Assembly (NCBI GenBank): GCA_030613005.1
Contig: JAUWMV010000010.1
Location: 5,718-69,717 of the forward strand
Source: a bacterium
Lineage (GTDB): Bacteria; UBP14; UBA6098; B30-G16
DNA: 64,000 bases
Direction of reading: 5' to 3'
The notes under the pieces: model-generated
What the model saw: only the letters and a program-made list of their open reading frames with translations
Told to the model about the DNA's origin: nothing
Database searches by the model: none
Part shown: positions 5,221 through 64,000 of the stretch, piece after piece
How the letters are laid out: every line of letters starts with the position of its first letter
Numbering within the stretch: the stretch's first letter is position 1
Made by a program: the position numbers and the translations under genes

Positions 5221-7377
5221 TTACTTTACCAAAATCAAAGATTTTCTCACAGTTTCGTTCGGTGTTGATAGGACAGCAAAATAAGTACCACTTGGTTGAT
5301 ATTTTGCATTCCAAATAAGAGTGTGCTTACCAGAAGGCAATACATCTTGAATAAGAACTTTAACTTTTCTGCCTGTGGCGTCGAATATTGTCAGATCGAC
5401 ATGAGTCTCGTTGGGAAGAACGAAATCGATCTCTGTGGATGCATTAAAGGGATTTGGATAATTGTCTAAAATCTCTAATTTTGTTGGAACCATATTTTTC
5501 AAATTGGTGGTCTTCGCTAACATTACCTCCACAATCGCTTTGTAGACATGTATTCCCTGAAACATATCAACGGAGAAAATGTAATTTCCAAATCCAGTAA
5601 GCTGAGTCCAATAGCCGTTTTTCGGCATATCAGCTACCATTTTTAGAGTTGGCAAACTGCTTATATCGAAAACTTTCAATTGACCGGGACCATCTGCAAC
5701 ATATGCATAATCCCCAAATATTCGAACATCCATTCCCCATACAGATGGATATGTGGACACAAGCCTTAACTTTTCTGGATTGCTGATGTCGATCACTGAA
5801 ACACCACTTTGTCCATCCGCAGCGATAATATATTTTCCCACAATCTCGAATCCATTGCCACCAGTTTGACTTGTATGAATGTATCCTATTTCAGCAGGAA
5901 ATTCTTTGGATAGGTCAAAAACATGGTATCCACCTAGAAAGTCCGAAGCGTAAAGAAGATCACCATCGAAATGAATATCGTAAAACTGTGCACTGTAGTC
6001 CTTTAATATAAACGAGGTATATATGTGACCTGCATTAAGAGGCATCAATGCTATCCCATCTTTTCCTAATGACACAGCGCAAAAATCGTTCCCGAATTCA
6101 ATTCTCCCAATTTTATCTGGTCCTCTTGCTGTGGATATTACGGGAATTTCATCGAAAGCACTGAGATTTTTGGGGCTTGCAACAACCATAAACACATCCT
6201 CTTTGATGCTGCTTCTGGCGCCCAGGATATAAAGAAGACCATTGTAAATCTGAACATCCCAAACAATTGTCAGATCCACGCCATAAACATTTCCAATTTT
6301 CAAAGGTCGCTCTGGATCTGATATGTCGTATACAAGAACACCCGATCGTCCTGCAGCAATGTATAAAACGTTGTCATAAATGCATATTCTTTTCGGAGTA
6401 TCATAGGTTTCTACATGACCAATTTCCATAGGTGCTCGGAAATTTGTAACATCAAACACATGAATTCCCATATGATCATTTGCTAAATAAATATCTTCAT
6501 CAACCTTTCCAAAATCCAATGTAGGCATGCCATCCAAATTCCATACTAAAACAGGATCACCTTCAATGAGCTCATAGATAGCAAAGTTCTTATATCCACC
6601 GGCATAAACGATTCCATCAAAAATTTGAACGGTCATCGGTGTAAGAAAAGGTATATTGAAAAGTCGTCTGCCAAAAATTTTCTTTTCGTTAGGTTTTTCA
6701 GCATCCCAGCGACCGTAAATAATAATGTTATTATGAAGCTGAAGCGATGTATATGTTCCCGGTTGATGCCCTAAAAGGAAAAATCTATTTTCCCTCGATA
6801 ATCCCACAACATAAATTCCCTTATTACCATTGGCTACATACAATCTGTTTTTAAACCAATCCATGCAAAGAGGTTTTCCATCGATATTAGCACGTGTTAA
6901 TAAACTGGGTGCATTTAAATCGGAGATATCTATCAAAGCCAAATATCCTTTTCCAGCCAGAAATAACCTGTTTTCATCAATTTCGAATGTAGAAAAATTG
7001 GTAAATACTGGATCCTTAAATTCAGGGAATTCGCCGAGAAGCAAAGGTTCATACGGTCTGGTTACATCAAATATTTCCAAACCTTCCTTTTCCCAAAGCA
7101 CAAAAAGTTTGTCTCCAACAACCTCCATCTTAACAATGGTGCTCGAATGACCTTTAACATCAGAAATAAGCTGTGGAAAATCTCGATTGAAAACGTTATA
7201 AATTCTAACAACACCACTCACACCGGCATACACCACTTCTCCATCGGATGTCATTGCTTGCACTCTACCCATAGGTATTTCAGCAACTTCCTCTAACTGA
7301 ACTGGACTACTTAATGCCAGAGAAGTTGCTAATAAAAATCCACATATCAAAGCTACACATTTTAGACCTTTCATCAT
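5221..7377 (-). CDS. Secreted LVIVD-repeat beta-propeller protein with T9SS C-terminal sorting domain
   Basis: Signal peptide. Recurring V(F/Y)D(I/V)S(D/N)P..P motifs characteristic of LVIVD repeats. C-terminal ~80 aa (NPFNASTEIDF...GTYFAVLS...LILVK) matches the T9SS/Por CTD pattern. Confidence 0.7.
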   Translation of the reverse strand: MMKGLKCVALICGFLLATSLALSSPVQLEEVAEIPMGRVQAMTSDGEVVYAGVSGVVRIYNVFNRDFPQLISDVKGHSSTIVKMEVVGDKLFVLWEKEGLEIFDVTRPYEPLLLGEFPEFKDPVFTNFSTFEIDENRLFLAGKGYLALIDISDLNAPSLLTRANIDGKPLCMDWFKNRLYVANGNKGIYVVGLSRENRFFLLGHQPGTYTSLQLHNNIIIYGRWDAEKPNEKKIFGRRLFNIPFLTPMTVQIFDGIVYAGGYKNFAIYELIEGDPVLVWNLDGMPTLDFGKVDEDIYLANDHMGIHVFDVTNFRAPMEIGHVETYDTPKRICIYDNVLYIAAGRSGVLVYDISDPERPLKIGNVYGVDLTIVWDVQIYNGLLYILGARSSIKEDVFMVVASPKNLSAFDEIPVISTARGPDKIGRIEFGNDFCAVSLGKDGIALMPLNAGHIYTSFILKDYSAQFYDIHFDGDLLYASDFLGGYHVFDLSKEFPAEIGYIHTSQTGGNGFEIVGKYIIAADGQSGVSVIDISNPEKLRLVSTYPSVWGMDVRIFGDYAYVADGPGQLKVFDISSLPTLKMVADMPKNGYWTQLTGFGNYIFSVDMFQGIHVYKAIVEVMLAKTTNLKNMVPTKLEILDNYPNPFNASTEIDFVLPNETHVDLTIFDATGRKVKVLIQDVLPSGKHTLIWNAKYQPSGTYFAVLSTPNETVRKSLILVK

Positions 7378-8991: not shown

Positions 8992-11958
8992 CTATTTGGG
9001 TTTAATTTGCAAAAACCCATTACCAATCGATAATATCCAATAGCCGATACTTGGTTCAATAGCATCCGGTTCTACGACAATATAAAGCTTCGACTCACAA
9101 TCCCATCGGAAAATACTCGATGGAACAATAAGGTCCGGTGGTTCAGTAGTGAATTCAGCGGGTCCATTGATTGCACCTACAAGGTTCCAACCTTTAACAA
9201 TAGGAATAATTGTTTCATTTACTGGAACACCACCAATTGTAATAGATTTATCTGCAGTAGAATAAATCCAGAAACCCTGACCTGCCTGCGTTCGTGAAAC
9301 GATATAGAAATTTCTTAGAACAGGATTATAAGCGAACGGTCCAGCGAAGATTTCATCAAAGCTTTCTGTCCAATTAGGCATATTTATTACAACTGGCGAA
9401 GAAAGAAGGTTCCAACCATTACATAGATCAAGATATGTTGCACCCGGTTCAGGTTGCGAGTATTCAATAACAAGATTTTCATTAGCGGAATAGAAATAAA
9501 TCGAATCTTCTCTCATATCGATATAGTTATTAAGAGTAAAAATACCGTCGGGCCAAAGTCTGGGATCCCAATATAGCGAACCAGGATTTTCGACTGTCAT
9601 TACAATCCATGTGCTTGGTATAGAGCTTATATTTCTTAAATCCCTTTCTAATCTTGTAATATGAGGATAGAGAGGATCATCGATCCAAATATAAACTTCG
9701 GTCAACTCAGGTGTCGTTGGTGATGAAAATATATCCATTAATGGATCATAACCATCTGTAGCTGAATAGTTGCAACCTATTGTCATTACATTCCTATCGA
9801 GATATCCTCCAGTAGGATCGAAACCATGGAAAATAAGATGCTGCATCCATGAAACTGTATTCCATCTTACAAAAATTGTAGCATCGTCGGAGTAATATCC
9901 TACTGTCCCATCGAGCAGTATCGCTGTGTCGATAAGCATTGGAGTGAAGGAAGCACCGGGAGCACTATTATTTATTAGAAGTTCAATGTCGATGAATTTA
10001 ATGTTCCGTAACATTGGGGTTATATTATTGCCGTCGATAAGCAAATAACCACTTCTTGAAGCATCAAAGTTTACTGTAAAACCATCTGCAGCTGTGCCAT
10101 CTGTTTTAACATCGAGAACCGAGACGATTTCAGGATTAAATTTTATTCCAATTGAGAAATCTGTAATAGAGAATCTAAACGGATCATCGCAATATAATGA
10201 GTACTTTACAGTAGTTCCAGGTTCCAAGGTCGTATCTCTAAAGTATAAGTAAAGATTGTCGACGAAGAAATTCCAGCATATATTAGATTCATTAGGACCA
10301 CAGTAATCATTCGTAACATTGTCCGCAGCGTAAACACACACATTGATCGTGTCACCCTTACCCCAGTTGTAGATACCGATCGGATGTAAACTAAATTCTC
10401 CATCCTCAAAAGTTACTGCTGGATCATCGATTCCATACTCATCGTCATTAACAGTCATTTTAATGCTTGAATTATCCAATCCTGATAGTAGATCGCTTAT
10501 ATTAACTGAAATAATTTCGGGCACTGAACCAAGTATTATGTTATCGAGTGGATAAACATTTTCAAGTATCGGTGGATCAAGGTCGAGCCTAAACCAATTA
10601 GTTATAGGAGCAGATAATGTACAACCACCTAAATCGTAAACATCGAGCAAACCATAATCGATTCTTTCTCCTGAGAAGAACTGCCCAGAATCGGGAGTGA
10701 AAGTTAAAATGCTGTCCTCGAATTCTAATCGCGGATCGGTGTTTGGGTCATAAATTTCACCGTCAACAGCAAATTCAATCGTTGATACATTAATACCTGC
10801 ATCATCATCTATTAATGCAATTCGAATTTCCTGAGGATCGCAGCCGCTCCAGACTCCAGTCTCAGGCCATATATTGTGAGCTTCAACAGGGGAACAGGCA
10901 CAATTTGGAATATACATGCATCCAGCACCTCGAACACTATGCATTGCAGATGAGGCATCAATTGTGAAGCACCCTTCTGCACCAATGCAACCCTGGGTGT
11001 AGTTTATCCTCCATACAAAATGTGCAGTATCTCCCGGTAAGATACTATCGCTTAGAACAGGATTTTGACCTCGTAATATCCTAATGCAAAATCCGGTCGA
11101 TAAATATGAAGCAATTCTTTGCTTGTATGGTGTGTTGTTTGCAACGTAACCTTCGATAAGCTGGAATATACCCAGTTTATCGAGCATGGAGTTATAAATT
11201 GATGAAAAACTTGTACCAAGCCGGAACCATTGTCCACCAGTGCTCTCCGCAACAGACCTATACCATTCTTCACAATAACCGTGTGGAAGCCTCATACAAT
11301 GAGTAGTATAAAGGGATGAACCTGTTACTGTAAATAGCATAAATGCACCATCCATAAGCTTATGCATTATCGTATCAGGATTTACACCTGATGTGCAATA
11401 CTCGGCACAGATTGAAGAATCCACACAGAATGGAGCATCGGTAAGAAGAATAATAACTCTCAATGCTCCAGATCTCCAGTGAATTGAGTCCATAGCTGCA
11501 TTTATCGCATCTAATGCCATCTCAGGTCCGTCGTCACCCTCTCCTGAACCTATTGGAGCCATCCAAGAATGAAATGTATCGATATTAGTCGTACAATCAT
11601 ACCCATGTGGAAAATTTTGCCCGTCGCCATAAGTAACAACATTCAAAGCATAATCGTAACCTGTAGCCTCCATAGTGTCAGCGAACTCCCTAATATTTGC
11701 CACTGCACCGACAATGTATCTGTACATGCTGCCCGTTGTATCGAGTACGAATACGATATCTACATTACCTGTATCCTGAGTACAGGTGATATCGAGTCTA
11801 AAGAATCCTGAATCCGAGAGCTCAAATGGATGAGTTATGCCCTTTCGGATTAGGTTAATTCCAATGATATCCAGCCCATAGTTATCTGGTGGATTATCCT
11901 TAGCGGTTACCATTGAAATAATTAATACGGGTAAAATCAACCATACCAATTTCCTCAC
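8992..11958 (-). CDS. Large secreted von Willebrand factor A (vWA) domain protein
   Basis: Signal peptide. MIDAS-like DIVFVLDTTGSM near the N-terminus. 988 aa Cys-rich extracellular-type composition. No clear T9SS CTD. Confidence 0.6.
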   Translation of the reverse strand: MRKLVWLILPVLIISMVTAKDNPPDNYGLDIIGINLIRKGITHPFELSDSGFFRLDITCTQDTGNVDIVFVLDTTGSMYRYIVGAVANIREFADTMEATGYDYALNVVTYGDGQNFPHGYDCTTNIDTFHSWMAPIGSGEGDDGPEMALDAINAAMDSIHWRSGALRVIILLTDAPFCVDSSICAEYCTSGVNPDTIMHKLMDGAFMLFTVTGSSLYTTHCMRLPHGYCEEWYRSVAESTGGQWFRLGTSFSSIYNSMLDKLGIFQLIEGYVANNTPYKQRIASYLSTGFCIRILRGQNPVLSDSILPGDTAHFVWRINYTQGCIGAEGCFTIDASSAMHSVRGAGCMYIPNCACSPVEAHNIWPETGVWSGCDPQEIRIALIDDDAGINVSTIEFAVDGEIYDPNTDPRLEFEDSILTFTPDSGQFFSGERIDYGLLDVYDLGGCTLSAPITNWFRLDLDPPILENVYPLDNIILGSVPEIISVNISDLLSGLDNSSIKMTVNDDEYGIDDPAVTFEDGEFSLHPIGIYNWGKGDTINVCVYAADNVTNDYCGPNESNICWNFFVDNLYLYFRDTTLEPGTTVKYSLYCDDPFRFSITDFSIGIKFNPEIVSVLDVKTDGTAADGFTVNFDASRSGYLLIDGNNITPMLRNIKFIDIELLINNSAPGASFTPMLIDTAILLDGTVGYYSDDATIFVRWNTVSWMQHLIFHGFDPTGGYLDRNVMTIGCNYSATDGYDPLMDIFSSPTTPELTEVYIWIDDPLYPHITRLERDLRNISSIPSTWIVMTVENPGSLYWDPRLWPDGIFTLNNYIDMREDSIYFYSANENLVIEYSQPEPGATYLDLCNGWNLLSSPVVINMPNWTESFDEIFAGPFAYNPVLRNFYIVSRTQAGQGFWIYSTADKSITIGGVPVNETIIPIVKGWNLVGAINGPAEFTTEPPDLIVPSSIFRWDCESKLYIVVEPDAIEPSIGYWILSIGNGFLQIKPK

Positions 11959-23213: not shown

Positions 23214-24137
23214 TTATTTAATATATAAGATTCTTTTTGATGCAGTCTGATTATCAACTGCCGCTCGAATAAAATAGACTCCGCTTTCTACCGATTTATT
23301 GGGATGCCAAACTATCGATTTGCGATTAGTATTCAGACACGACCAAATCAATCTTCCCTGAAGATCGATTATCTCAACTGTAGCGTGCTTAGGAGCTATG
23401 ATATTACATGCCGAATTAAATGGATTTGGAGTCACATCGATAGAAATATTTCGAGGTATATTTGTTAGAGCTTCGTCTATATCGCCAGTTCCATAACTAA
23501 GCAGCACTTCAATTATTTCGGTTGAATCAAAAGGATCGAGATACCAATTTTTTATTCTACCAACATCCTTAGCAAGCCACCAATACTGTTCTCCCCATTC
23601 AGTATTATCTGCATATATAGTATCGATACCTGAAAGAACTATATAAAATTCTTCTTGTATGATTTGCAACTTAACACAATCTGTAAATGAACCAGCAGGA
23701 ACACTGACATCTTCAAAAAAAATTGCACGAAAGTTCACAGACCAATGTTCAATATTCGTATACATTGAATCTACCCATGTTGTATCATGACTATAAACAA
23801 CCCATGAATCTCCAATATTAAAGGTATTGGGGAACATCTTCATTGTCATTGTATCAGGGAAATCTATTTCAATAAACCAAATACCATCAGGTCGAGTCTG
23901 ATAATATGTTGTATCTTCTGATCCCTCCCAGAGATCCACCCAAACGTAAGTTTTATAGCCTGACATTCTAATTGTGTCTACTATTGTTATAATACCGGTA
24001 TCCTTTCCAGACTCAGAGGAATCCTCATATGTCCAAGTATTACCGATTTCTAAAGGAAAATAATCTCTCGCATTGAGTGCAAATGCAGAAAATACTGGTA
24101 TTATAAGAAGCAATACTACTATTCCCTTGAATTTCAT
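23214..24137 (-). CDS. Secreted protein with T9SS C-terminal sorting domain
   Basis: Signal peptide. C-terminal NPFNSACNI...VEIIDLQGRL...GVYFIRAAV...ILYIK pattern typical of Por/T9SS CTD. Confidence 0.6.
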   Translation of the reverse strand: MKFKGIVVLLLIIPVFSAFALNARDYFPLEIGNTWTYEDSSESGKDTGIITIVDTIRMSGYKTYVWVDLWEGSEDTTYYQTRPDGIWFIEIDFPDTMTMKMFPNTFNIGDSWVVYSHDTTWVDSMYTNIEHWSVNFRAIFFEDVSVPAGSFTDCVKLQIIQEEFYIVLSGIDTIYADNTEWGEQYWWLAKDVGRIKNWYLDPFDSTEIIEVLLSYGTGDIDEALTNIPRNISIDVTPNPFNSACNIIAPKHATVEIIDLQGRLIWSCLNTNRKSIVWHPNKSVESGVYFIRAAVDNQTASKRILYIK

Positions 24138-31246: not shown

Positions 31247-32302
31247 TTATTTAACTACTCTTTTTGTCTTTTTGGGTTCAGCGGGTTTTTCCTCGGTTGC
31301 TGCGTCCTCCTCAGCAGGTTTTCCTTCCTCAGCTTCCTTCTCAGCCATTGCAACTTCTTCACCTTCTACTGGGATCGTTAAGCCTAATTCTGCAGCTCTT
31401 TTTTCATTTATTACCTTATAACCAGTGTCAATAGTAACAATAGGAATGTCGGCAGGTTTGGTTCCATCTAAGATACTAATAACCATCTCACCTGCGGCTT
31501 TACCTTGATCCGCACCGTTTAGACTGTATTCGCAAAGGAATTCATCTTCTACAGGATAGAGACTCAATTCGGGAAGTTTATTATTATCAATTATCCACTT
31601 TACAACCATTTCGGCAGGTAAATTGATTTCGCTTGTTTCATCGGTAAGAGTGAGGCATGAATAAAAACCGATAGCATCAACAGTAGTCTGATATTCAGCA
31701 ATCTTTTCCTTCCAACCATTGAAATCATCGGAAATATAGACTTCTACAAGTTCTATTGGCAATTCCGTCTCTTTCAACCGAGCCATAACAAGTTGTGATG
31801 TAGGACTTTCATCAGAAATAAATGCTATCTTCTTCACATCGGGAGCTAAAGATTTCAAGAGTTCAAAAGCTTTATCGAATTGATCTCTCTCGATAACACC
31901 TGTAACATTTCCATCAGGGAAATTGTAAGCTGCAGGATCGTTATTAACACCTGCAAACACGATAGACATCTTATCACCAACATGATTCTTACCAACTAAT
32001 TCACATGCATTATCGTCAAACAAAACTAACACCTTGGGCTTGAACTTTTTAATCTTTTTCTCGGTATTTTCAGCAGATTCAAGTTTCCAATCCTCATCCG
32101 TTTTACTTTTAGTGTCCATATAATAGATTTCTAAATTTATCTCCTTTTCACCAAGAGCTTCCTTCAAACCGTCCAACTCCTCCGTACACCATGCAAATTC
32201 TTCATTATAACTGAAAACAACCAAAACCTTTGGTGGCCTCTTTGCGCACCCCATAAAGCTAACCATAATCAAGACTAACATAACCCATAAAATCCTTTTC
32301 AT
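31247..32302 (-). CDS. Lipoprotein, probable ABC-transporter-type substrate-binding (ABC_sub_bind/BMP-like) protein with acidic C-terminal tail
   Basis: Lipobox SFMGC. Periplasmic-binding-fold-like alternation. ATG at 32302 with AAGGAGG Shine-Dalgarno. The ORF-track start at 32320 is a TTG. Confidence 0.45.
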   Translation of the reverse strand: MKRILWVMLVLIMVSFMGCAKRPPKVLVVFSYNEEFAWCTEELDGLKEALGEKEINLEIYYMDTKSKTDEDWKLESAENTEKKIKKFKPKVLVLFDDNACELVGKNHVGDKMSIVFAGVNNDPAAYNFPDGNVTGVIERDQFDKAFELLKSLAPDVKKIAFISDESPTSQLVMARLKETELPIELVEVYISDDFNGWKEKIAEYQTTVDAIGFYSCLTLTDETSEINLPAEMVVKWIIDNNKLPELSLYPVEDEFLCEYSLNGADQGKAAGEMVISILDGTKPADIPIVTIDTGYKVINEKRAAELGLTIPVEGEEVAMAEKEAEEGKPAEEDAATEEKPAEPKKTKRVVK

Positions 32303-32905
32303 GTCCCCCTCCTTTTTCAAAGGATTATTCCATGTTAAACATAATTTTCTTTATTTACAATATTACACATTAATATCACAGGATGAATAAACCAATTATC
32401 ATCACTAATCTAAAAATGTTTATAAACTAACCCGAACCCAAATTACTTTATCAACAATTTACCCCTATAAAATCAAAGCTCTAATAAATCTATACCAACC
32501 TTAGAGTTATCCATAGTCATAAAAGTAACACTTACTTCTGCCAACTCCCGATAAATATAGAAACTATTTATACTCCGCTAACCTTAGAGAGAATCGCAAA
32601 CCATGACCTAATAAGTCTTAAAAATATCCCTGTGTAACTGAACAGTTAATAGTAATCAAAAAGAATAAAACGAACTTTTCTCATCTCCCCCCAAAGATTA
32701 GAAAAGACGATAACCCTAAAAACTGAATATATAATACTTCAATTAAGACAATTAACAAGAAAATTCTCACTATTTTTTTTTGTTTGATAAATATTTTTTT
32801 TCATATCTATGAAACTTTAAATTATCGGTAAGCTTTCATTTTCTATTGCTTAACACACTCAAAATGTTAGTTTAGGATTCCAGATATCACTGAATTGAGG
32901 AAATA

Positions 32906-33907
32906 ATGAAATCACCATTGCTCTTTACTGGCAAAACCGACTATGCATATGCGTCAGGTGTAATAAGAGGTCTCGAGAATTACCTTCTTGGTCGAAGTGA
33001 ATATCAGAAGTTAATAGATTCCGATCCAGATAGTATAGACAATGTTTTGGCAGAATTTGGATATTCGAGTAGCGAGAAAGATCCTGAGATAGCGCTCAGT
33101 CTTGCAACAGAGAAACTGTTCGAAACAATTGATAAATTATCTAAAGGGGATAAAATAGCCGATATCTGGAAAGTTAGAGCCGATTTCTCGAAAATTTCTG
33201 CCATTGTTAAATCAATACTTTTAGACACTGAACCACCGGAGTTAGTAAATTGGGGATTTCTCAACTCTGAAGAGCTCAGCAGAGAGATTTACTACCATTT
33301 CGATCCCGAAAAAAAATGCTCGCTTCCGGTTCATTACATTAAAACAATAGAGAGAGCACAATCAAATTTCAAAAGCCATAAAACAACTCTTTCTGTGGAT
33401 ATTGCTGTGGATAACTCATTTTCTGATTATGTGAGTACTATTATTCCGAGAAGTGAGTATTTTAAACGATTTTGGAGTTTTTATGTGGACTGGTGGAATG
33501 TTAAGGCTTTCGTTCGAATCCGGAAAGCTAAATTGTCGTCAAGCATATTTTATGATACATTTAATGCTGCTGGAGATATTCCACTTAGCATATTTACTGA
33601 CGCTATGGAAAGCGATAGTGAGCGATTATCAACGCATTTTATGCATACAGAATACGGAAAAGGTTTACAAGACGTTATTAAGCAAGCATTTGAGGGCATG
33701 CTTATCCCACTCGACAATTATTTCCGAGGGAAACTTCTTGTACACTATAAATATACACGGTATTGCCTTTACGGTCTCGAGCTCCTTTTAGCATATGAAA
33801 GCATAAAACTCGAGGAAATAGCAATACTAAGAACAATTATCCGAGCCAAGAAAGCTCGATTACCTGTCAATAAACTTAAGGAGGTAATAAACTTTGCCTT
33901 GGAATAA
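32906..33907 (+). CDS. V-type ATP synthase subunit C (d subunit)
   Basis: N-terminal DYAYASGVIRGLENYLL and overall ~330-aa helical protein resemble NtpC/AtpC of V/A-ATPases. Confidence 0.65.
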   Translation: MKSPLLFTGKTDYAYASGVIRGLENYLLGRSEYQKLIDSDPDSIDNVLAEFGYSSSEKDPEIALSLATEKLFETIDKLSKGDKIADIWKVRADFSKISAIVKSILLDTEPPELVNWGFLNSEELSREIYYHFDPEKKCSLPVHYIKTIERAQSNFKSHKTTLSVDIAVDNSFSDYVSTIIPRSEYFKRFWSFYVDWWNVKAFVRIRKAKLSSSIFYDTFNAAGDIPLSIFTDAMESDSERLSTHFMHTEYGKGLQDVIKQAFEGMLIPLDNYFRGKLLVHYKYTRYCLYGLELLLAYESIKLEEIAILRTIIRAKKARLPVNKLKEVINFALE

Positions 33908-34223
33908 ACTTGCAGCAATAGGAGATTTCTCCACAGTTTTCCCGTTAAAGGCAATCGGTATCGAGGTGCATCCTGTGGACGATAATGAAGATGTGGCAAA
34001 AATTCTTCGTAATTTAGCGATAAGCAAAGAGTTCGGTATTATATTCGTAACAGAGAGCCTATTGAAACCTGCACAGGAAGTTATGAACGAGTTCTTAGAT
34101 AAAGAGATGCCTGCAATAATCACAATCCCGAGTATTAGTGGCTCTCAGGGGTTAGGAGTATCGCGAGTTCGCGAGATAATGAAACGTGCTGCCGGTCGCG
34201 ATATTATGGCTGAAGAAGACTGA
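33894..34223 (+). CDS. V-type ATP synthase subunit F
   Basis: ~109 aa. LAAIGD...GFxxAG-like N-terminus and IPS...G pattern of V-ATPase F. TTG start with AAGGAGG Shine-Dalgarno 8 nt upstream. Overlaps the C-subunit stop. Confidence 0.6.
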   Translation: MPWNKLAAIGDFSTVFPLKAIGIEVHPVDDNEDVAKILRNLAISKEFGIIFVTESLLKPAQEVMNEFLDKEMPAIITIPSISGSQGLGVSRVREIMKRAAGRDIMAEED

Positions 34224-34290
34224 CTTCATTAATTCTTCCTAAATTTCACTCCTGAATATTATCCTTTGAAAATTGATCTTGGAAGTATTG

Positions 34291-34385
34291 TTGTATGCTC
34301 CCCCCTCATCCTAAATCCTTCTCCCCGAGGAGAAAGACTTTCCATGTTGTCCTTCGTCTGGTTGTCCTGGTCGAATTCACCGAGC
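34291..34385. repeat. Copy A of ~85-95-bp hairpin-containing repeat (CCCCTCATCCTAAATCCTTCTCCCCGAGGAGAARGACTTT..CATGTTGTCCTTCGTCTG..TCCTGGTCGAATTC...)
   Basis: Near-identical to copy B at 35881..35975. Shares its 3' 32 nt with partial copy C at 34972..35010. Contains an 8-bp stem CCTTCTCC/GGAGAAGG with a CCGA loop. Confidence 0.85.
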
Positions 34386-34580
34386 TGCTTTGTAGGATAA
34401 ATTTTAGAGCTGTTGTTTCTCATCAGGTGTTATCTCTTTTCGAAATTTTCTATAATATTTAATAGCCATGCCTATGATCCATATAATATTAAAACCTAAA
34501 CCCCAAAATAAAATTCTTAAATCGTTTTTTAAGTATAATACCGAAAAAACTGAAAAGTAAATAAATATCAATTGGTATAT

Positions 34581-34817
34581 CTAAAAGATAGGCACAGCCA
34601 CTGTTTTAAACATATCCTTTGTTTTTGAAGCAAATTTAATCATCATAAATAGCAATACTGGTGAAATTAGAAAAAATCTTAAAATTGCGTTTTTTACAAA
34701 ATCTTCTCTTGGTAAATGTTTGTATGGGGAGCACAATACCATTAAAATCCACATCAAACATAAAATATAAATAGTAATGTATTTTCTTTTGTTAGAAATC
34801 TGTTTTCTTTTATTCAT
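34581..34817 (-). CDS. Hypothetical small membrane protein (2 predicted TM helices)
   Basis: Strong AAGGAG Shine-Dalgarno before the ATG. Hydrophobic segments. Confidence 0.4.
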   Translation of the reverse strand: MNKRKQISNKRKYITIYILCLMWILMVLCSPYKHLPREDFVKNAILRFFLISPVLLFMMIKFASKTKDMFKTVAVPIF

Positions 34818-34835
34818 AGCATTTCTCCTTGAATT

Positions 34836-34890
34836 ATGTCCCTACTTAAATTTTTAATAATATAATTATCTTTGTTTCAAGTAGGGACAT
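34836..34890. repeat. Perfect 12-bp inverted repeat ATGTCCCTACTT / AAGTAGGGACAT separated by a 31-nt AT-rich spacer, immediately 5' of the 34581..34817 gene
   Basis: Read directly. Arms at 34836-34847 and 34879-34890. Confidence 0.8.
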
Positions 34891-34971
34891 TTTACTCTGT
34901 AATTTAATCCTACTAAGACATACTTTATTTCGAAAAAATCCTTCTCTTGCACCAATGATATCGTTTCCACT

Positions 34972-35010
34972 CGTTGTTGTCCTGGTCGAATTCGTCGAGC
35001 TGCTTTGTGC
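34972..35010. repeat. Partial copy C of the islet repeat (TTGTCCTGGTCGAATTCGTCGAGCTGCTTTGTG)
   Basis: Matches the 3' portion of copy A at 34358..34390 with 2 substitutions. Confidence 0.7.
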
Positions 35011-35107
35011 TGTCGAAATCGAAACCGGAGTCGCGGGAACCTGTTTCATAGTTGCGAAGGTTTCCAAGAAAGTCTATGTTCTCATGATGAAGCATTTTTC
35101 ATCGTCA

Positions 35108-35395
35108 TTATAGTATGAATTCTTGCTTTACGCCTTCAACTACTCTAACTCTCTTTACTGTCATAGGTCTATCCCATCTAGAAAATCTGTTGCGAAAATC
35201 CCAATAATATGCTTCTACTATTTTATTATTTTCAACAATAAAAGTGTCAACAAATGTATAAATATAGTATTGTCTTAACTTACCTTTGTAAAACTTACTA
35301 TTTCTATAAACATAAGGATGTTTACTGAAACTGATAAGGGTATAACCTCCTTTGAATAAATCAGTTCGAAACCCATGCTTTATGAAAATATACAT
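35108..35395 (-). CDS. Hypothetical basic protein; may be a frameshifted continuation of the 35380..35757 ORF
   Basis: ORF only. No Shine-Dalgarno. Its ATG lies inside the last codons of the upstream ORF (AAATAAATGTAT). Confidence 0.2.
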   Translation of the reverse strand: MYIFIKHGFRTDLFKGGYTLISFSKHPYVYRNSKFYKGKLRQYYIYTFVDTFIVENNKIVEAYYWDFRNRFSRWDRPMTVKRVRVVEGVKQEFIL

Positions 35396-35757
35396 TTATT
35401 TGAATCTGTTATGTCGTTTACATGAGTAATCGATTTAACATAAACAGAGGGATTATATGATCTTACAAATTTCTCCTCACCAGGCTTCCCAATCCAAAGA
35501 GAGTAATCACCACCATATCCACCATTAAATATAATATCTCTATTTCGAACCTGAGCTCTGATACCTTTGCAAACATCCTCGAATGCTAATTCATTGAGTA
35601 AATTCCAAGATGGTATAATCATGTTTACAAACCTTGGTATTGCTGTCATACATATAATTACTATAAATAGCATTGAAGTAAATATTGCAATTAGGATCAT
35701 AAAATAAATCCATCTCGCAACAACACATCTGAATATAGCATTAATACATGTATTCAT
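35380..35757 (-). CDS. Hypothetical protein with N-terminal TM helix
   Basis: AGGGGAA Shine-Dalgarno 4 nt before the ATG. N-terminal hydrophobic helix then a ~90-aa soluble region. Confidence 0.4.
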   Translation of the reverse strand: MNTCINAIFRCVVARWIYFMILIAIFTSMLFIVIICMTAIPRFVNMIIPSWNLLNELAFEDVCKGIRAQVRNRDIIFNGGYGGDYSLWIGKPGEEKFVRSYNPSVYVKSITHVNDITDSNKCIFS

Positions 35758-35880
35758 TTAAGTTCCCCTATTTAAGACTTACTAAATGCACGAATTTTTA
35801 TAATCACTAATTATTTTAACAACATTATTTAAAGAGCCAATTTCTTTCATCAACAAATAAACCAATGTCAAAGTAGTTTG

Positions 35881-35975
35881 AAATCACCTCCCCTCATCCT
35901 AAATCCTTCTCCCCGAGGAGAAGGACTTTTCATGTTGTCCTTCGTCTGATCGTCCTGGTCGAATTCGTTGATGTG
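35881..35975. repeat. Copy B of the islet repeat
   Basis: ~90% identical to copy A over ~85 nt including the hairpin. Confidence 0.85.
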
Positions 35976-36022
35976 TAAGTTTTTGCTGTGGTTTAATTAG
36001 TATCTCGATCCAAGTAATTAAT

Positions 36023-36289
36023 TTACTTTTCATCTATTCCCATAAACCATTTCGGATATTTAAAACGCATCACTATCTGTATAATAATGAGACCACTGAG
36101 ATATAGCACAATACATAAGGATAAGGAAAATTGTTTGAATGAGGTATATTTATCACCTGTTAAATAACTGAATATAGTAGATTTTTCTAACATAAATACA
36201 AAAGAAGAATACAACACAATTATACCAAGAAGGATGTAAAAAAGAATAAGGCGAATTATGCTCCTGGTTTTATTAATGCTATCCACCAT
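36023..36289 (-). CDS. Hypothetical small membrane protein (2 TM helices)
   Basis: ORF with two hydrophobic segments. Weak Shine-Dalgarno. Confidence 0.3.
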   Translation of the reverse strand: MVDSINKTRSIIRLILFYILLGIIVLYSSFVFMLEKSTIFSYLTGDKYTSFKQFSLSLCIVLYLSGLIIIQIVMRFKYPKWFMGIDEK

Positions 36290-36436
36290 CCTGCTTTACA
36301 TTTTTCACTCAAATCTCTAATATTATACATATATTCATTTAAATTTGCAAATAAAAACAATTTAATTTGAGTTTTACTCCCTGAAATAAAAATTGTGGTG
36401 GAAATCTAAATTAAAAATTTAATAAATTGTATTCAT

Positions 36437-36489: not shown

Positions 36490-36927
36490 ATGAGAGAACT
36501 TTTGCCACAAATCGATAACATAATAAGTCGAATTGTCGAGCAAAATGGTGGTGAATTGGTGGAGATTAGTGTCGTCGGTCGAGATAAAACTTCAATTCTA
36601 AGAGTATTTGTTTGCAAACCAGGTGGAATTAACATCGGAGAAATCTCAACACTGACAAAAAAGATTTCAAAAGCTCTTGACGAAGCCGATATAATTCCGC
36701 ATAATTATCTCTTAGAAGTTTCATCACCAGGTCTTGACAGACCACTCAGAACTATCCGGGATTTCGAACGAGTGATATCCGAGAATGTCAGAATAGTACT
36801 TCCAGATGGCAAAACGCATGAGGGTACATTAGTCGAAGCCGACCAAGATACAATCTCATTAGAAACAGAAAGTGAATCAATCCTAATATCACTCGATGAA
36901 ATATGCTCAGCAAAAATTATTTATTGA
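36490..36927 (+). CDS. rimP: Ribosome maturation factor RimP
   Basis: VSSPGLDRPL motif. Conserved position upstream of nusA. AAGGGGGA Shine-Dalgarno before the ATG at 36490. Confidence 0.85.
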   Translation: MRELLPQIDNIISRIVEQNGGELVEISVVGRDKTSILRVFVCKPGGINIGEISTLTKKISKALDEADIIPHNYLLEVSSPGLDRPLRTIRDFERVISENVRIVLPDGKTHEGTLVEADQDTISLETESESILISLDEICSAKIIY

Positions 36928-44863: not shown

Positions 44864-47800
44864 ATGTATAAGTTGTTGTTTGCGACTGTGTTACTCTTAG
44901 TAAGTTTGTCATTCGGATTTGTTGCATATGAAACTGGTCTTCCTGAAATTAATGTGGATTACCCCAAAGCAGTAAACATTTCAGGGTTAGAGCGCCTTAA
45001 CATTAATGATATATTAACGATAAAAGTTAAAGTTGATCCTATTGGTGGAAACGTAGTACACATGATACCAGAACCTATTACTACGAAATTAAATAGAATC
45101 GAGAATGCACAGGATGCTGTAAGCGCTGCTTTTGATTTTGCTAGAACATATACTTCCTTGATAGGAGTACCACCTGAAAACCTCTGTTACCAACGCTCAG
45201 AAAAGATAAGAAAATTCTGGTATGTTACGCTTGACCAGCATTACAACGGAACACTTGTTATAGGAGGCAATGCTGAATTCAGGATAAACGATAAAGGTGA
45301 AGTATTCTTCTATCACAGTGGCATAAAACCTATGGACAAACCACTTGTGTCAGAAACAATTAGCAAATCCAAAGCATTAGATCATGCAATAGAATTCTTG
45401 GGTGTAAGCGATTATGAACTAAGAGAATCGCATATTCGAATTGCAGCTATTCCAAATGGAAAGGAATATGAAGGAAAATATGTCTGGTGGCTCAAAATAA
45501 TGATAAACAAACCCTTAGCGTTATACATAATCTGGATCGATGCTCAGACGGGTAAGGTTTTACGTGCACTTAACGAACTACCAACACTTTCCGGGAAGGT
45601 AGAAATACAATATCATCCGGAATTCGCAGATGATACAATGCGAGTGGGAAACATGAAATACGCTTTTCTGCAAGTTAACGGCACAGGTGCTTACACTGAT
45701 TCTTTTGGAAATTATTCTGTAGCTGGGAGCACACCACCTTTTAATTTTCACCCAAAGCTATATGGCAACTACTGTGAGGTAACTCGCAATAGCTCGAGCC
45801 CGAGTTCTAATATGGATACAACAGTCACTGGACCCACATACGATCATCTATGGTGTACACCACCTGCAATTGAAAACGAAATAAATATATACTATCATGT
45901 AAATGTAGTTCACGATTTCGTTAAGAACTATCTGGGTTATTCGCGGATGGATTATAGAGTTAAGGGGAATGTGAGTGATTCCAGAATTCGAGATAATGCA
46001 TTCTCAGATGGAACGAATATAAATTTCGGAGTTCCGAATAGACTAAATGATCTATCGATGCATGCAGATGTGGTCTATCACGAATATCAACACTTAGTAA
46101 CTGCAAGAGTTTACAGTGGTGTGTCCTTCCCCTATTCAGGAGAATCTGGAGCAATAAACGAAGCCCTGTCTGATTATTTTCCGTGTTCATTCCTAAACGA
46201 TCCTTTAATTGGAAATAGAGTTAATCCCTCCGCTCCAAGTTACTATATGAGGAATTTGAATAATCGATTGATGTATCCAACAGATCTAGTAGGCGAAGTA
46301 CATTATGACAGTAGAATAATTTCTGCAGTTTGGTGGGAGATTCGAACTGCATTGGGTATCGGATACACCGACTCTCTTGTACACCGAACGCGGTTCGGAC
46401 ATCCCGTTAATTTCGAAGAATATTTAGATGAGATGTTAGTGGCTGATGACGACGATGGGAATCTATCCAACGGAACACCGAATTCAGAAGCAATATTTAT
46501 TGCATATAACAATCATGGCATAGGACCGGAAAAATTAATGTGCATCACCCATAGATGCATAGGTGATCAGGAGGATACAACTGGGGAATACTTTGTTAGT
46601 GCAAAAATATTCACAGTATTAGAAATCGATTCTACAGCTTTTTGTTACAGAGTCGATTTTTCTTCTTGGAGCTGCACTACTTTAACATACACTGGTTCTA
46701 CTTGGGTTGCAAATATCCCAGCTCAGCCAATAAACTCCCTTGTACATTACCAATTTTATATCAAAGCACCCAGTGGGTTCGATGTTAAAGAACCTCCAGG
46801 AGCTGGCTTTTTTTCTTTCCGAGTTGGAAAAGATTCGATTCCACCTATAGTAAATCACACACCAATAGTTAATGCATCCCTTTCAATATGGCCACCAGAG
46901 CTTGTAGCTCAAGCAACCGATAATGGTTCTGTTCGAGGCGTAACGTTGGAATACTCAATAAATGGAACTTCACAACCTGCTATTCCATTTTCTTACGATT
47001 ACTATGAAGATATATGGAAAACCAATTTCCCAACAACTTTTCCTAGTATTAATGACACAATAGATTATAGAATTATAGCCACAGATAACTCCGTTGCTGC
47101 AAATGTAGGTTTCGCTCCCGACAGTATTTCTATGTTCAGATTTATTGTCGCATTAAGCTTTTTTGAGGATGTAGAAACCGGTGCTCCTGGTTGGCGTGAT
47201 TACAGCGTAACCTCAACATATACAAACCAATGGCACGTTTCTACAGCAAGGAAACTCAGTGGTAGTCGCAGCTTTAAATGTGGCGGATCAGGACATTCAG
47301 ACTATGCTGATGGTTTGGATGCTGGACTTATGACGCCTGTAATTTTCGTTTCCAATGAAGATACTCTTTTCTTCTATCATTGGATCGACGCCGAAAAAGA
47401 TGATACTCATCCAGGATATGCTTGGGATGGCGGAATTGTCGAGGTTAATCTTGTAGGCACAGAAGAATGGAGACAGTTAGATCCGATTGGTCATTATCCA
47501 TATAGGACACGAAGCAATCTCGCATCACCATTTCCGGCTAATACACCTTGTTATTCCGGTACTCAGGATTGGAATATTGCTGTTTTTCCGTTGGATTTTC
47601 TTGGATATGTGAAATTCAGATTTAGATTTGGGAGCGACGCTCATATAACTGGTGAAGGTTGGTATATCGATGATATAAGAACAACAAACTGGACATTTGG
47701 TCCTTGGATAGAAGAGCAAATAACACACCTTCCTCAAAGTATTAACATCGATATTACTCCGAATCCTTTTAATTCATCTGTTTCCTTTTCAATTCTTGTT

Positions 47801-47995
47801 CCCGAAGATGGTTCGATTTCTGTTGTTGTTATGGATATTGTTGGGAAGCATAGCTACACAGTTTACAAAGGCGAAGTTAATGTAGGAATACTTGGACTTA
47901 CATGGCAACCATCTGATATTCCAGCAGGCATATACCTTGTTCGTGTCAGAAATAACGATTATGAAACTGTAAAAAAGATATATTACATTAAGTAA
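44864..47995 (+). CDS. Secreted zinc metalloprotease (HExxH) with propeptide-like N-terminal region and T9SS C-terminal sorting domain
   Basis: Signal peptide. HEYQH zinc-binding motif with a downstream E (GAINEALSD). C-terminal NPFNSSVSFS...GIYLVRV...IYYIK T9SS CTD. GEGWYIDDIRT motif is shared with the 1..2024 protein. Confidence 0.6.
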   Translation: MYKLLFATVLLLVSLSFGFVAYETGLPEINVDYPKAVNISGLERLNINDILTIKVKVDPIGGNVVHMIPEPITTKLNRIENAQDAVSAAFDFARTYTSLIGVPPENLCYQRSEKIRKFWYVTLDQHYNGTLVIGGNAEFRINDKGEVFFYHSGIKPMDKPLVSETISKSKALDHAIEFLGVSDYELRESHIRIAAIPNGKEYEGKYVWWLKIMINKPLALYIIWIDAQTGKVLRALNELPTLSGKVEIQYHPEFADDTMRVGNMKYAFLQVNGTGAYTDSFGNYSVAGSTPPFNFHPKLYGNYCEVTRNSSSPSSNMDTTVTGPTYDHLWCTPPAIENEINIYYHVNVVHDFVKNYLGYSRMDYRVKGNVSDSRIRDNAFSDGTNINFGVPNRLNDLSMHADVVYHEYQHLVTARVYSGVSFPYSGESGAINEALSDYFPCSFLNDPLIGNRVNPSAPSYYMRNLNNRLMYPTDLVGEVHYDSRIISAVWWEIRTALGIGYTDSLVHRTRFGHPVNFEEYLDEMLVADDDDGNLSNGTPNSEAIFIAYNNHGIGPEKLMCITHRCIGDQEDTTGEYFVSAKIFTVLEIDSTAFCYRVDFSSWSCTTLTYTGSTWVANIPAQPINSLVHYQFYIKAPSGFDVKEPPGAGFFSFRVGKDSIPPIVNHTPIVNASLSIWPPELVAQATDNGSVRGVTLEYSINGTSQPAIPFSYDYYEDIWKTNFPTTFPSINDTIDYRIIATDNSVAANVGFAPDSISMFRFIVALSFFEDVETGAPGWRDYSVTSTYTNQWHVSTARKLSGSRSFKCGGSGHSDYADGLDAGLMTPVIFVSNEDTLFFYHWIDAEKDDTHPGYAWDGGIVEVNLVGTEEWRQLDPIGHYPYRTRSNLASPFPANTPCYSGTQDWNIAVFPLDFLGYVKFRFRFGSDAHITGEGWYIDDIRTTNWTFGPWIEEQITHLPQSINIDITPNPFNSSVSFSILVPEDGSISVVVMDIVGKHSYTVYKGEVNVGILGLTWQPSDIPAGIYLVRVRNNDYETVKKIYYIK

Positions 47996-63019: not shown

Positions 63020-64000
63020 TTATTTCAAATATACGATTCGCTTCGTTATTTGTTGCCCATCCGATGTCGTTGCTCGCACGAGATAGACGCCGCTAGAGAT
63101 TGTTTCTTCGGGTTGCCAGATAATAACATCCTGAGTCGATGCAGAAACCCCCTGTCGCTTCGCGACATCCCCTTTATTAAGTGGGACTTCTTCTGGTTTG
63201 CCTCCCTTAATAAGGGAGGTGGCTCCGACATTGTCGGAGTCGGAGGATTTATTCCAAACCAATCTCCCCTGTAAATCATATATCTCCACATTCACATTCG
63301 CACATAGGGCTGAAGCCCCATGTTGACATACCATTATCGCGCATGATGAATTAAACGGGTTTGGAGAAATAGTAAGTTCGAAAGAGATCGGTTTTGACAG
63401 TGGTTCTGTGATGAGATCGGTACATATTACAGTTACGGTTGGATCAACATCGCTTATTGTGGGTGTTACTCCCAATACGGATACAGATGGTATTGTAACA
63501 GTTGGCGACACACTATCAACACTCGGCGTTACATCTGTTATTGTTGGGAAGACTTCTGAACCTATGCATGTATTTCCATCGCTATCGAACTTCACAAGAA
63601 ACAAATCATAGTCACCAACGCCAAAACTATTTGTCATTCCAATTACAATATATTCTCTATTAGGGATTAGGGCAACAGAATGTCCATAATCCTGATCTAT
63701 TCCCCCCACAGTTTTCGCCCATGTTAAATCCCCGGAGGAATTAAATTTGCCAAGAAATAAATCAGAGCTACCGGCGCCAACAGGACTCTCTCCTGTTACG
63801 ATATACCCTCCGTCAAAGGTCTGGGCAACAGAATAGCCAAAACAATGATATCCCCCCCCCACAGTTTTCACCCACGTTAAATCTCCGGAGGAATTAAATT
63901 TGGCAAGAAATAAATCATCGCCACCGCCGCCAAAACTATCTGCCCACCCAGTTACAACATACCCTCCGTCAAAGGTCTGGGCAACAGAATTGCCTCTATC
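63020..64000 (-). CDS. Secreted repeat protein with T9SS C-terminal sorting domain; 5' end beyond window end
   Basis: Frame stays open to coordinate 64000. At least three tandem ~47-aa repeats (...FDGGY[IV]VTG...DLFL[AG]KFNSSGDLTW[AV]KTVGG...). C-terminal SPNPFNSSCAI...GVYLVRAT...IVYLK T9SS CTD. The apparent GTG start at 63871 is only the first start codon inside the window. Confidence 0.6.
   Translation of the reverse strand, partial: DRGNSVAQTFDGGYVVTGWADSFGGGGDDLFLAKFNSSGDLTWVKTVGGGYHCFGYSVAQTFDGGYIVTGESPVGAGSSDLFLGKFNSSGDLTWAKTVGGIDQDYGHSVALIPNREYIVIGMTNSFGVGDYDLFLVKFDSDGNTCIGSEVFPTITDVTPSVDSVSPTVTIPSVSVLGVTPTISDVDPTVTVICTDLITEPLSKPISFELTISPNPFNSSCAIMVCQHGASALCANVNVEIYDLQGRLVWNKSSDSDNVGATSLIKGGKPEEVPLNKGDVAKRQGVSASTQDVIIWQPEETISSGVYLVRATTSDGQQITKRIVYLK
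63852..63860 (-). repeat. G9 homopolymer (C9 on plus strand) inside the coding sequence of the 63020..64000 gene. Paralogous repeat copy has G6 (63702..63707)
   Basis: Read directly. Currently in frame, encoding VGGGY vs VGGI in the other copy. Confidence 0.9.

Follow-up and report, generated by a model that had tools for sequence, protein, structure and literature searches.

Background

We have analyzed a short islet of small genes that lies between the gene for the V-ATPase F subunit (atpF) and rimP in a bacterial sequence of 64,000 nt (assembly GCA_030613005.1, contig JAUWMV010000010.1, positions 5,718 to 69,717). The whole of this stretch is referred to as the window, and coordinates are those of the window. 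The islet (34224-36420) is bounded by the stop codon of atpF (33894-34223, plus strand) and by rimP (36490-36927, plus strand). Two kinds of described system come close to it. The class of intrastrand triplex motifs is already known, as are cassette arrays with repetitive spacers (integrons and clusters of attC sites lacking integron integrases (CALINs), rAID-1, and tandem immunity strings). What is new here is the combination, found in an uncultivated lineage, of a triplex motif plus a lineage-specific core as the junction of a demonstrably shuffled cassette array.

Triplex motifs of the PIT/BoxC/TM class are built from three stems in succession (pyrimidine, purine and mirror purine), with a loop between each stem and the next (Holder et al. 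2015, PMC4666352). In E. coli they are always intergenic and highly conserved, and the loci that hold them are significantly more rearranged between strains than control sites (PMC4666352). The hairpin in the islet repeat resembles members of this class, such as TMECO of E. coli, in its 9-nt pyrimidine stem, 4-nt loop and 9-nt purine stem, followed by a 3-nt loop and a 9-nt mirror purine stem with a single T. It is likewise intergenic, strikingly conserved across genomes, and located at a site that is rearranged between close strains. It differs in being A/T-richer (TCCTTCTCC...GGAGAAGGA...AGGATGAGG), off the TMECO pattern CCCTCNCCC...GGGNGAGGG, and in being fused to a lineage-specific core at cassette junctions, an arrangement that is not described in PMC4666352.

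Among gene arrays, rAID-1 of the Bacteroidales is defined by an XerD-like tyrosine recombinase on the 5' side (>44% identity to BF9343_RS08045) with at least two co-directional low-GC genes downstream, and its intergenic sequences have been called "reminiscent of integrons" (Ross et al. 2019, 10.1101/471110). The islet shares with rAID-1 the co-directional, small, low-GC and variable genes and the repetitive intergenic sequences. However, it has no upstream recombinase domain, rimP being directly upstream of the array head; arrays of the islet type hold 1-3 or more genes; and whereas rAID-1 genes are recognisable immunity homologues, the islet cassettes match nothing in Pfam, NCBIfam, PADLOC or PHROG. 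Integrons and CALINs have the same gene-then-repeat layout and co-oriented cassettes of strain-variable content and order, the permuted order seen here is consistent with circular intermediates, and CALINs also lack a local integrase. In contrast to both, the islet repeat as read directly has neither the long imperfect palindrome R''/L''-L'/R' of attC sites (57-141 nt) nor GTTRRRY, its breakpoints are heterogeneous, and its cassettes have conserved flanks on both sides. Unlike in integrons, no IntI-type tyrosine recombinase adjoins the islet, among the 40-odd window open reading frames (ORFs) scanned with Pfam or the neighbouring genes on two contigs of relatives (L065 and L073).

The esaG and tsaI immunity strings of type VII secretion systems (PMC9484751) likewise consist of small genes that are not identical and are in part paralogues, and recombination between repeated sequence alters how many and which of them are present. 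The islet differs in that its recombining homology lies in intergenic spacers and not in coding sequences, and in that it mixes unrelated gene families and has no linked cognate toxin or secretion system. From repetitive extragenic palindromes (REP), REPINs and miniature inverted-repeat transposable elements (MITEs), which are dispersed over a genome in many copies and go with a RAYT or transposase, MITEs having terminal inverted repeats and target-site duplications as well, the islet repeat differs in being confined to arrays in the sampled genomes, which are incomplete, and in having no terminal inverted repeats.

From comparison of the sequences we favour, by a small margin over even chances, a reading in which orphan envelope-protein genes specific to the lineage form a tandem array that varies between strains and undergoes homology-driven shuffling at triplex-containing repeats.

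Array content in related strains

Contigs that carry identical or at least 90% identical AtpF, AtpC and RimP were compared. The core genes of these strains differ by a synonymous divergence (dS) of ~0.14-0.23. The atpF-rimP interval occurs in five array states, in which cassette genes are named by the length of their product in amino acids (aa):

State W (window): rimP - 88 - 214psi - 137psi - atpF, psi marking a putative pseudogene
State J (L073, JGI Ga0366832_1000003): rimP - 88 - atpF, with a single repeat
State E (L079 and L067, ENA): rimP - 88 - X - 214' ..., X being a paralogue of 214
State C (L002, which is metagenome-assembled genome (MAG) CSMAG_2881, and L078): ... 187-aa gene with multiple transmembrane spans - atpF, with a repeat on either side
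State G (L077 and L075/L076; GCA_964562425.1): an array head unlike the others, followed by ... 137 - 208 - atpF

The content of the islet is thus variable at the atpF-rimP site, with one cassette in strain J and different genes in other strains. The difference between the window and strain J is the simplest of these:

34379..35966, minus strand: 1588-bp block holding the 214 and 137 cassettes and one repeat unit, absent from strain J at this locus

After removal of 34379-35966 the window is collinear with L073 (1446 versus 1445 nt, with at most two gaps), so that W and J differ by one block bounded by the direct repeats A and B described below. In strain E, X is inserted between 88 and 214. 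In strain G the whole region is replaced, array head included. Strain J carries a second locus, in which 213 - 137 - 214 are found between a DUF3857/transglutaminase gene and the phosphoenolpyruvate carboxykinase (PEPCK) gene (L065). By BLASTN the 214-block of the window (35966..35016) matches the second position of this second-locus array and the 137-block (35040..34283) the first, and the two matches overlap at the repeats. The orders in the window and in L065 are circular permutations of one two-gene unit. The 137 gene has three different next neighbours among the arrays and is joined to them via the core each time.

Taken together, the aligned contigs show that recombination in the spacers has led to gain, loss, exchange and permutation of cassettes, among the strains and also between the two loci on the chromosome. 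The initial annotation had proposed a gene-then-repeat cassette array built by repeated insertion at one site. The array itself stands, as does the change of its content by recombination at the repeat; integron-like, site-specific integration at a single site is not supported.

Anatomy of the repeat

Each gene module of the islet had been described as followed on its 3' side by a copy of one repeat. All of these copies (A, B and a partial copy C) were located, and they can be divided into modules (m1 to m6) by comparison with relatives:

34283..34393, minus strand: repeat copy A, the m4 core region plus the triplex motif, from direct-repeat search and junction alignment
35871..35981, minus strand: repeat copy B, core plus triplex motif, from the same search and alignment
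~34951..35040, minus strand: repeat copy C, modules m3-m4-core-m5a without the triplex motif, core at 34979-34993
34364..34378, minus strand: 15-nt core of copy A, GAATTCGACCAGGAC on the gene strand
35952..35966, minus strand: 15-nt core of copy B
35967..36022, minus strand: module m1, 3' flank of the 88-aa gene, with the same flank behind the 88 gene of L073 and L079 and behind the 213-aa gene of L065
35041..35107, minus strand: module m2, 3' flank of 214-family genes, recurring behind 214 of L065 and behind paralogue X of L067

Copies A (34283-34378) and B (35871-35966) are 86% identical across 96 nt. Copy C was first detected as a 33-nt match (34976-35008) and was extended to ~34951-35040 with the help of the relatives. 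The invariant part of the spacer is a core region of ~45 nt, AAGCAGCTCGRYGAATTCGACCAGGAC, held in module m4. The 15-nt core is identical in nine junction copies from five strains and two loci (exact match), whereas adjacent positions vary; a tenth junction copy (L079) has a G to A change in it. After the core comes either m5a (RACAACGAGTGGAAACGRTAYCATTGG) or m5b, the latter consisting of the hairpin and, in some copies, module m6. Flanks track genes: m2-m3 follows 214-family genes in three cases, the triplex motif and leader precede the 214 gene in three cases, and m1 follows both 88 and 213. Junction breakpoints fall at no fewer than five positions, namely ahead of m3, on either side of the core (at its left edge and immediately behind it), behind the triplex motif and behind m6, and two array ends (L065 and strain G) stop inside m3. 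In orthologous copies of W and J the core and hairpin are 94.9% identical, like the coding flanks, while the adjacent m1 and terminal spacer are 77-82% identical, which points to constraint on the core and hairpin or to homogenisation between copies.

Within the 64 kb, three sub-patterns taken from the repeat are found in the islet only, and shuffled sequences yield 0-0.15 matches. Over the window and ~110 kb of loci from the lineage and from distant relatives, core and triplex motif occur within arrays only, with the exception of a single core-like match (one mismatch) in the V-ATPase operon locus of a distant relative (L071). A scan of GTDB species representatives with the 24-nt hairpin core found it solely on the array contig of one same-species MAG. 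The full repeat is array-confined in the sampled DNA, while the hairpin part crosses phyla and is not specific to the islet. Folding of the full repeat, as RNA and as DNA, gave nothing beyond the local hairpin (z-scores near 0).

Short-read contigs from independent assemblies terminate inside the triplex hairpin, L001, L002 and L078 at their ends and L069 and L080 at their starts. In MAGs, arrays of this type will systematically be broken up or absent, and they are under-sampled there, as the repeat breaks short-read assemblies.

The intrastrand triplex motif

By its geometry the hairpin, which comes after the core region at most of the junctions, is a 34-nt purine-motif intrastrand triplex motif of the PIT/BoxC/TM class:

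34304..34337, minus strand: triplex motif of copy A, TCTTTCTCC-TCGG-GGAGAAGGA-TTT-AGGATGAGG, with one G-T wobble in the stem
35892..35925, minus strand: triplex motif of copy B, TCCTTCTCC-TCGG-GGAGAAGGA-TTT-AGGATGAGG, with 9/9 triads allowed

The triads of copy B are G*G-C, A*A-T and T*A-T, and its loops measure 4 and 3 nt. The window was scanned for three adjoining blocks on one strand, a pyrimidine stem, the purine stem complementary to it and a mirror stem of purines and T, with each stem 8 nt or longer, each loop 1-6 nt and no more than one mismatch. It holds two such motifs, both in the islet repeats and on the gene strand, against 0 in 50 shuffles of the window. In all arrays the motif is intergenic. 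The TMECO pattern (CCCTCNCCC N3-6 GGGNGAGGG N3 GGGNGAGGG) is not matched by the islet motif, TCCTTCTCC N4 GGAGAAGGA N3 AGGATGAGG, which represents an A/T-richer sequence class with TMECO geometry.

A metagenome scan with the hairpin core returned 61 unrelated contigs (L004-L064) from soils, lakes and other habitats, with GC contents of 32-69%. They have ~37 nt in common, CCTCATCCTAAATCCTTCTCC-N4-GGAGAAGGACTT, which are sequence-identical; the full triplex rule is obeyed by 53 of the 61 elements, and 23 have a second motif within 200 nt. Often a GC-rich TMECO-like relative, CCCTCTCC-N4-GGAGAGGG-NN-GGGGTGAGG, adjoins the element in inverted orientation. The islet core is present in none of these 61 contigs, which share the triplex module alone. 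The retention of one exact ~37-nt triplex sequence across 61 contigs of such different GC is a puzzling case of conservation across dissimilar genomes. In one of them (L021, positions 1-180) the triplex element is part of a tandem unit of ~100 nt, and L005 (2048-2130) provides another example.

Cassette genes and their products

The initial annotation listed four small minus-strand ORFs, 36289..36023 (88 aa), 35757..35380 (125 aa), 35395..35108 (95 aa, overlapping the 125-aa ORF by 16 nt) and 34817..34581 (78 aa). These ORFs are present, but they represent three genes, two of which are disrupted:

36023..36289, minus strand: 88-aa gene with two transmembrane spans, intact, first cassette of the array, with orthologues in L073 (93% nucleotide identity) and L079 (97%)
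35108..35757, minus strand: 214-aa cassette gene, frameshifted by a T5 to T4 change (plus-strand A-run 35385-35388)
34404..34817, minus strand: 137-aa cassette gene, disrupted by TTG to TAG at 34581-34583, 94% identical to the intact P0005 gene in L065
34836..34890, minus strand: hairpin in the 5' leader of the 137 gene, a 15-bp perfect stem with a 25-nt AT-rich loop, just upstream of AAGGAG
35758..35891, minus strand: 5' leader preceding 214, which contains module m6 and AGGGGAA and is kept in L065 and partly in L067 and L079

The 214-aa gene corresponds to the 125-aa and 95-aa ORFs together, and its copies in relatives (P0003, P0008 and P0009) are intact. By nucleotide alignment the 137-aa gene consists of the 78-aa ORF, as its N-terminal part, and the next in-frame ORF of 55 aa (34571..34404). 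When exact sequences were looked up, the 95-aa ORF fell into one 90% cluster with the 214-aa P0003, and the 78-aa ORF was grouped with the 137-aa P0005; P0003 and P0005 are both encoded on one 469-kb JGI contig. Since the NCBI and Logan records carry the same truncated 214 and 137 products, the lesions are probably real, and two of the three cassette genes are probably pseudogenes in the window genome. The two Shine-Dalgarno-like sequences noted initially, AAGGAG and AGGGGAA, are both present in the window sequence. The hairpin at 34836-34890 is kept in L065 (9281-9335) despite a different upstream neighbour, and may be a cassette-specific regulatory or processing element.

Synonymous divergence of the cassette genes is 0.08-0.15, compared with 0.14-0.23 for the flanking core genes. 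The ratio of nonsynonymous to synonymous divergence (dN/dS) is 0.31-0.45 for the 88-aa gene and 0.56 for the 137 gene, the 137 and 214 genes together spanning 0.34-0.74. The overall range of 0.31-0.74 compares with 0-0.24 for atpC, atpF and rimP in the same strain pair. By this measure the cassettes are real genes under weak constraint.

Hydropathy predicts two transmembrane spans in the 88-aa protein, ~4 in the 137-aa protein and one N-terminal anchor in the 214-aa protein, in which the anchor is followed by a beta-rich domain (AF2 model, pLDDT 69). The 214 family has diverged considerably; 214, X and 208 are paralogues with 23-31% mutual identity (30% for X and 214). It is also rare, with 3 matches among 5.8 billion proteins and 5 representatives among 1.84 billion. 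A giant protein of 2708 aa (P0036) has five separate stretches that match the beta-domain of the family at 26% identity. These matches suggest kinship between the cassette domain of the 214 family and a unit repeated within a large surface protein. One may speculate that the cassettes encode dispensable membrane- or periplasm-facing proteins that act in interactions between strains or with phages.

At the contig end of L075 (GCA_964562425.1) the homologue of the 137 gene is interrupted by at least 225 nt of GC-rich sequence (9430-9655), which has no Rfam match; in Logan contig L076, from another sample, the homologue is intact. The interruption could be a mobile insertion or an assembly chimera.

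Origin of the variable array

Every gene has 5' and 3' flanks of its own, and the conserved mosaic spacer joins one gene to the next. If the array is shuffled by homology, exchange would occur between repeats of 45-100 nt by RecA-type recombination or replication-associated template switching. The hairpin/triplex motif might stimulate recombination at the repeats, a plausible role given the published association of such motifs with rearranged loci, and a dedicated linked integrase would play no part. The heterogeneity of the breakpoints, together with the lack of a linked recombinase and of an attC-type site, fits this reading. The window had been said to hold no integrase or transposase, which the Pfam scan of 40-odd of its ORFs confirms, and Pfam lists of neighbours show no recombinase or transposase out to +/-8-10 kb from the L065 and L073 arrays.

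Several points weigh against this interpretation. The invariant 15-nt core could equally be the protein-binding site of an unlinked site-specific recombinase, and strain J could be the deletion product of recombination between A and B, instead of the window having gained an insertion. Three junctions (copy C, 213 to 137 in L065, and 137 to 208 in strain G) have no triplex motif, so the motif is not required at every junction. A stable triplex in vivo was not found by Holder et al. (PMC4666352), and earlier work cited there reports triplex motifs without promoter or terminator activity. Seven cassette proteins gave zero matches when searched against Pfam, NCBIfam, PADLOC and PHROG, and hence no homology-based function. 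Finally, the repeat may be spread genome-wide, as the sampling comprises 64 kb of the genome and fragments of relatives.

The islet is a clean natural case in which a non-B-DNA motif, of the intrastrand triplex kind, is located where the genes of an array join, with gain, loss and permutation documented at exactly these junctions between strains. It offers a concrete, testable locus for the proposed triplex-promoted genome plasticity, for which prior support is mostly statistical association in E. coli, and shows that cassettes of a poorly known lineage can behave in an integron-like way with neither attC sites nor a linked integrase.

An integron-like capture platform, with its recombinase encoded elsewhere, is the alternative that survives best, although we regard it as unlikely. 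The core GAATTCGACCAGGAC, with or without the triplex hairpin, would serve as the attachment site, and circles would excise and re-integrate at any core. Such a platform would explain why the core is invariant in the nine junction copies while neighbouring positions vary, why direct repeats exactly delimit the 1588-bp difference, and why the cassettes are co-oriented, AT-rich and promoter-poor. The circular permutation between the window and L065 is expected if a circle opens at either of two cores, and rAID-1 shows that recombinase-linked arrays with repetitive intergenic sequences occur in the Fibrobacteres-Chlorobi-Bacteroidetes (FCB) group. However, neither the 64-kb window nor the DNA up to 10 kb from the relatives' arrays has an integrase, and single-stranded DNA of both strands folds without an attC-like structure, giving the local 8-12-bp hairpin only (z -0.4 to -1.5). 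Direct reading reveals no inverted binding arms flanking the core, and breakpoints do not coincide at one point, the two array ends being inside m3 and not at the core. A dif/Xer-like or palindromic recombinase site around the core was also considered and rejected; its arms, compared by eye, contain no convincing inverted repeat. The more specific proposal that core plus triplex repeat is the attachment site of an undescribed, integrase-unlinked gene-capture system in an uncultivated FCB-group lineage seems to us distinctly improbable. If true, this would be an integron analogue whose non-attC site is presented by non-B DNA (hairpin or triplex), and whose cassettes move as circles between at least two chromosomal platforms.

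We see little likelihood that the repeats are ordinary regulatory or structural elements of an operon, with strain differences brought about by whole-locus replacement through the flanks and by local deletions. Replacement of this kind did take place in strain G, array head included, the triplex hairpin, 80 nt beyond atpF, has a weak terminator-like score when read on the plus strand, and core and triplex motif are conserved at the level of coding sequences. Yet the second locus has the 137 and 214 cassettes again, in permuted order, strain E has X placed between 88 and 214, and the 137 gene meets its three different neighbours always through the core; moreover, PIT motifs are reported to have shown neither terminator nor promoter activity in E. 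coli (Holder et al., PMC4666352).

Very improbable, in our judgement, is the idea that the repeat is itself a small protein gene (68 aa or less; for example P0007, MLHHENID...EFDQDDQTKDNMKSPSPRGEGFRMRG), partnered with each membrane protein in the manner of a peptide/immunity pair. An ORF of 54-68 aa with a start does span the repeat in four copies, one of which was predicted by the gene caller, and 4 of the 7 codons changed between copy C and the 213 to 137 copy of L065 are synonymous (direct reading). However, an in-frame start exists in 4 of the 10 listed junction copies and is missing from 5 others, the strain C copy (L002) has a stop directly after the core, ORF length and C-terminus differ in each copy, and the conservation is at the nucleotide level, matching hairpin/triplex geometry. 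P0007 is the single database protein of this kind among 5.8 billion and belongs to no Pfam family; this lone match and the inconsistent starts and stops led us to reject the small-peptide hypothesis. Almost no credence attaches to the view that the islet is what remains of a mobile element (MITE, transposon, prophage or fragment of an integrative and conjugative element), for although the islet is AT-rich, made of orphan genes and strain-variable, it has no terminal inverted repeats, no target-site duplication apart from repeats A and B, no adjacent tRNA, no transposase or integrase and no PHROG match, its core is unmatched in IMG/VR and the islet itself in PLSDB.

Flanks and genomic context

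GC over the cassette genes is 0.25-0.30, compared with 0.37-0.43 in the flanks, in agreement with the AT-richness described at the outset. The description of all flanking genes as plus-strand is incorrect, as an ABC-substrate-binding gene (31247..32320) is on the minus strand. Two features mark the ends of the islet:

34224..34303, minus strand: terminal spacer from the atpF stop codon to the last repeat, the array end being convergent with atpF
36322..36351, minus strand: highest-scoring promoter-like sequence in the islet (TTGCAA-17-TATAAT), located upstream of the 88-aa gene, a consensus match only (10/12)

The terminal spacer is common to L073, L002 and L078 (82-89% identity), and just its final 38 nt are kept in strain G (L075/L076). 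The array heads of L065 (8285-8365) and L077 (~320-400, reverse strand) have in common a promoter-like leader of ~55 nt, TTTTTTTTGCAYGARAAAA...TATTGACAWTTTGGAATTTAACAATAT. This pair represents two loci in different strains, and the array head of the window (36322-36351) differs from it. No tRNA lies beside the islet, the nearest being at 44.3-44.6 kb of the window. Rfam at gathering thresholds (window, L075, L067 and L002) detected two tRNAs far from the islet and nothing else.

The coincidence of the islet with a shortened set of V-ATPase genes had been taken to link the two, a link that is not supported by strain J, in which a single cassette is found in the same orphan atpC-atpF context. 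There the atpC-atpF pair is preceded by the same minus-strand ABC-substrate-binding gene as in the window. V-ATPase operons of distant relatives (39-45% AtpC identity) have the order I-(methyltransferase)-K-E-C-F, with F as the last gene and unrelated genes next to it. The absence of downstream A, B and D genes is thus ancestral, as the relatives' operons likewise stop at F, and the loss of I, K and E upstream is common to the strains regardless of islet content. The V-ATPase operon was not truncated by the islet. No I, K, E, A, B or D domain was detected in any scanned window ORF. Upstream of atpC, where the I, K and E genes are located in the distant relatives, the window has an A/C-rich gap of 585 nt without ORFs (32321-32905), with GC skew down to -0.62.

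Elsewhere in the window, four proteins (5221-7377, 23214-24137, 44864-47995 and 63020-63871) carry the Por_Secre_tail domain, the C-terminal sorting domain of type IX secretion systems. This indicates an FCB-group affiliation, and the host probably belongs to an uncultivated lineage of that group.

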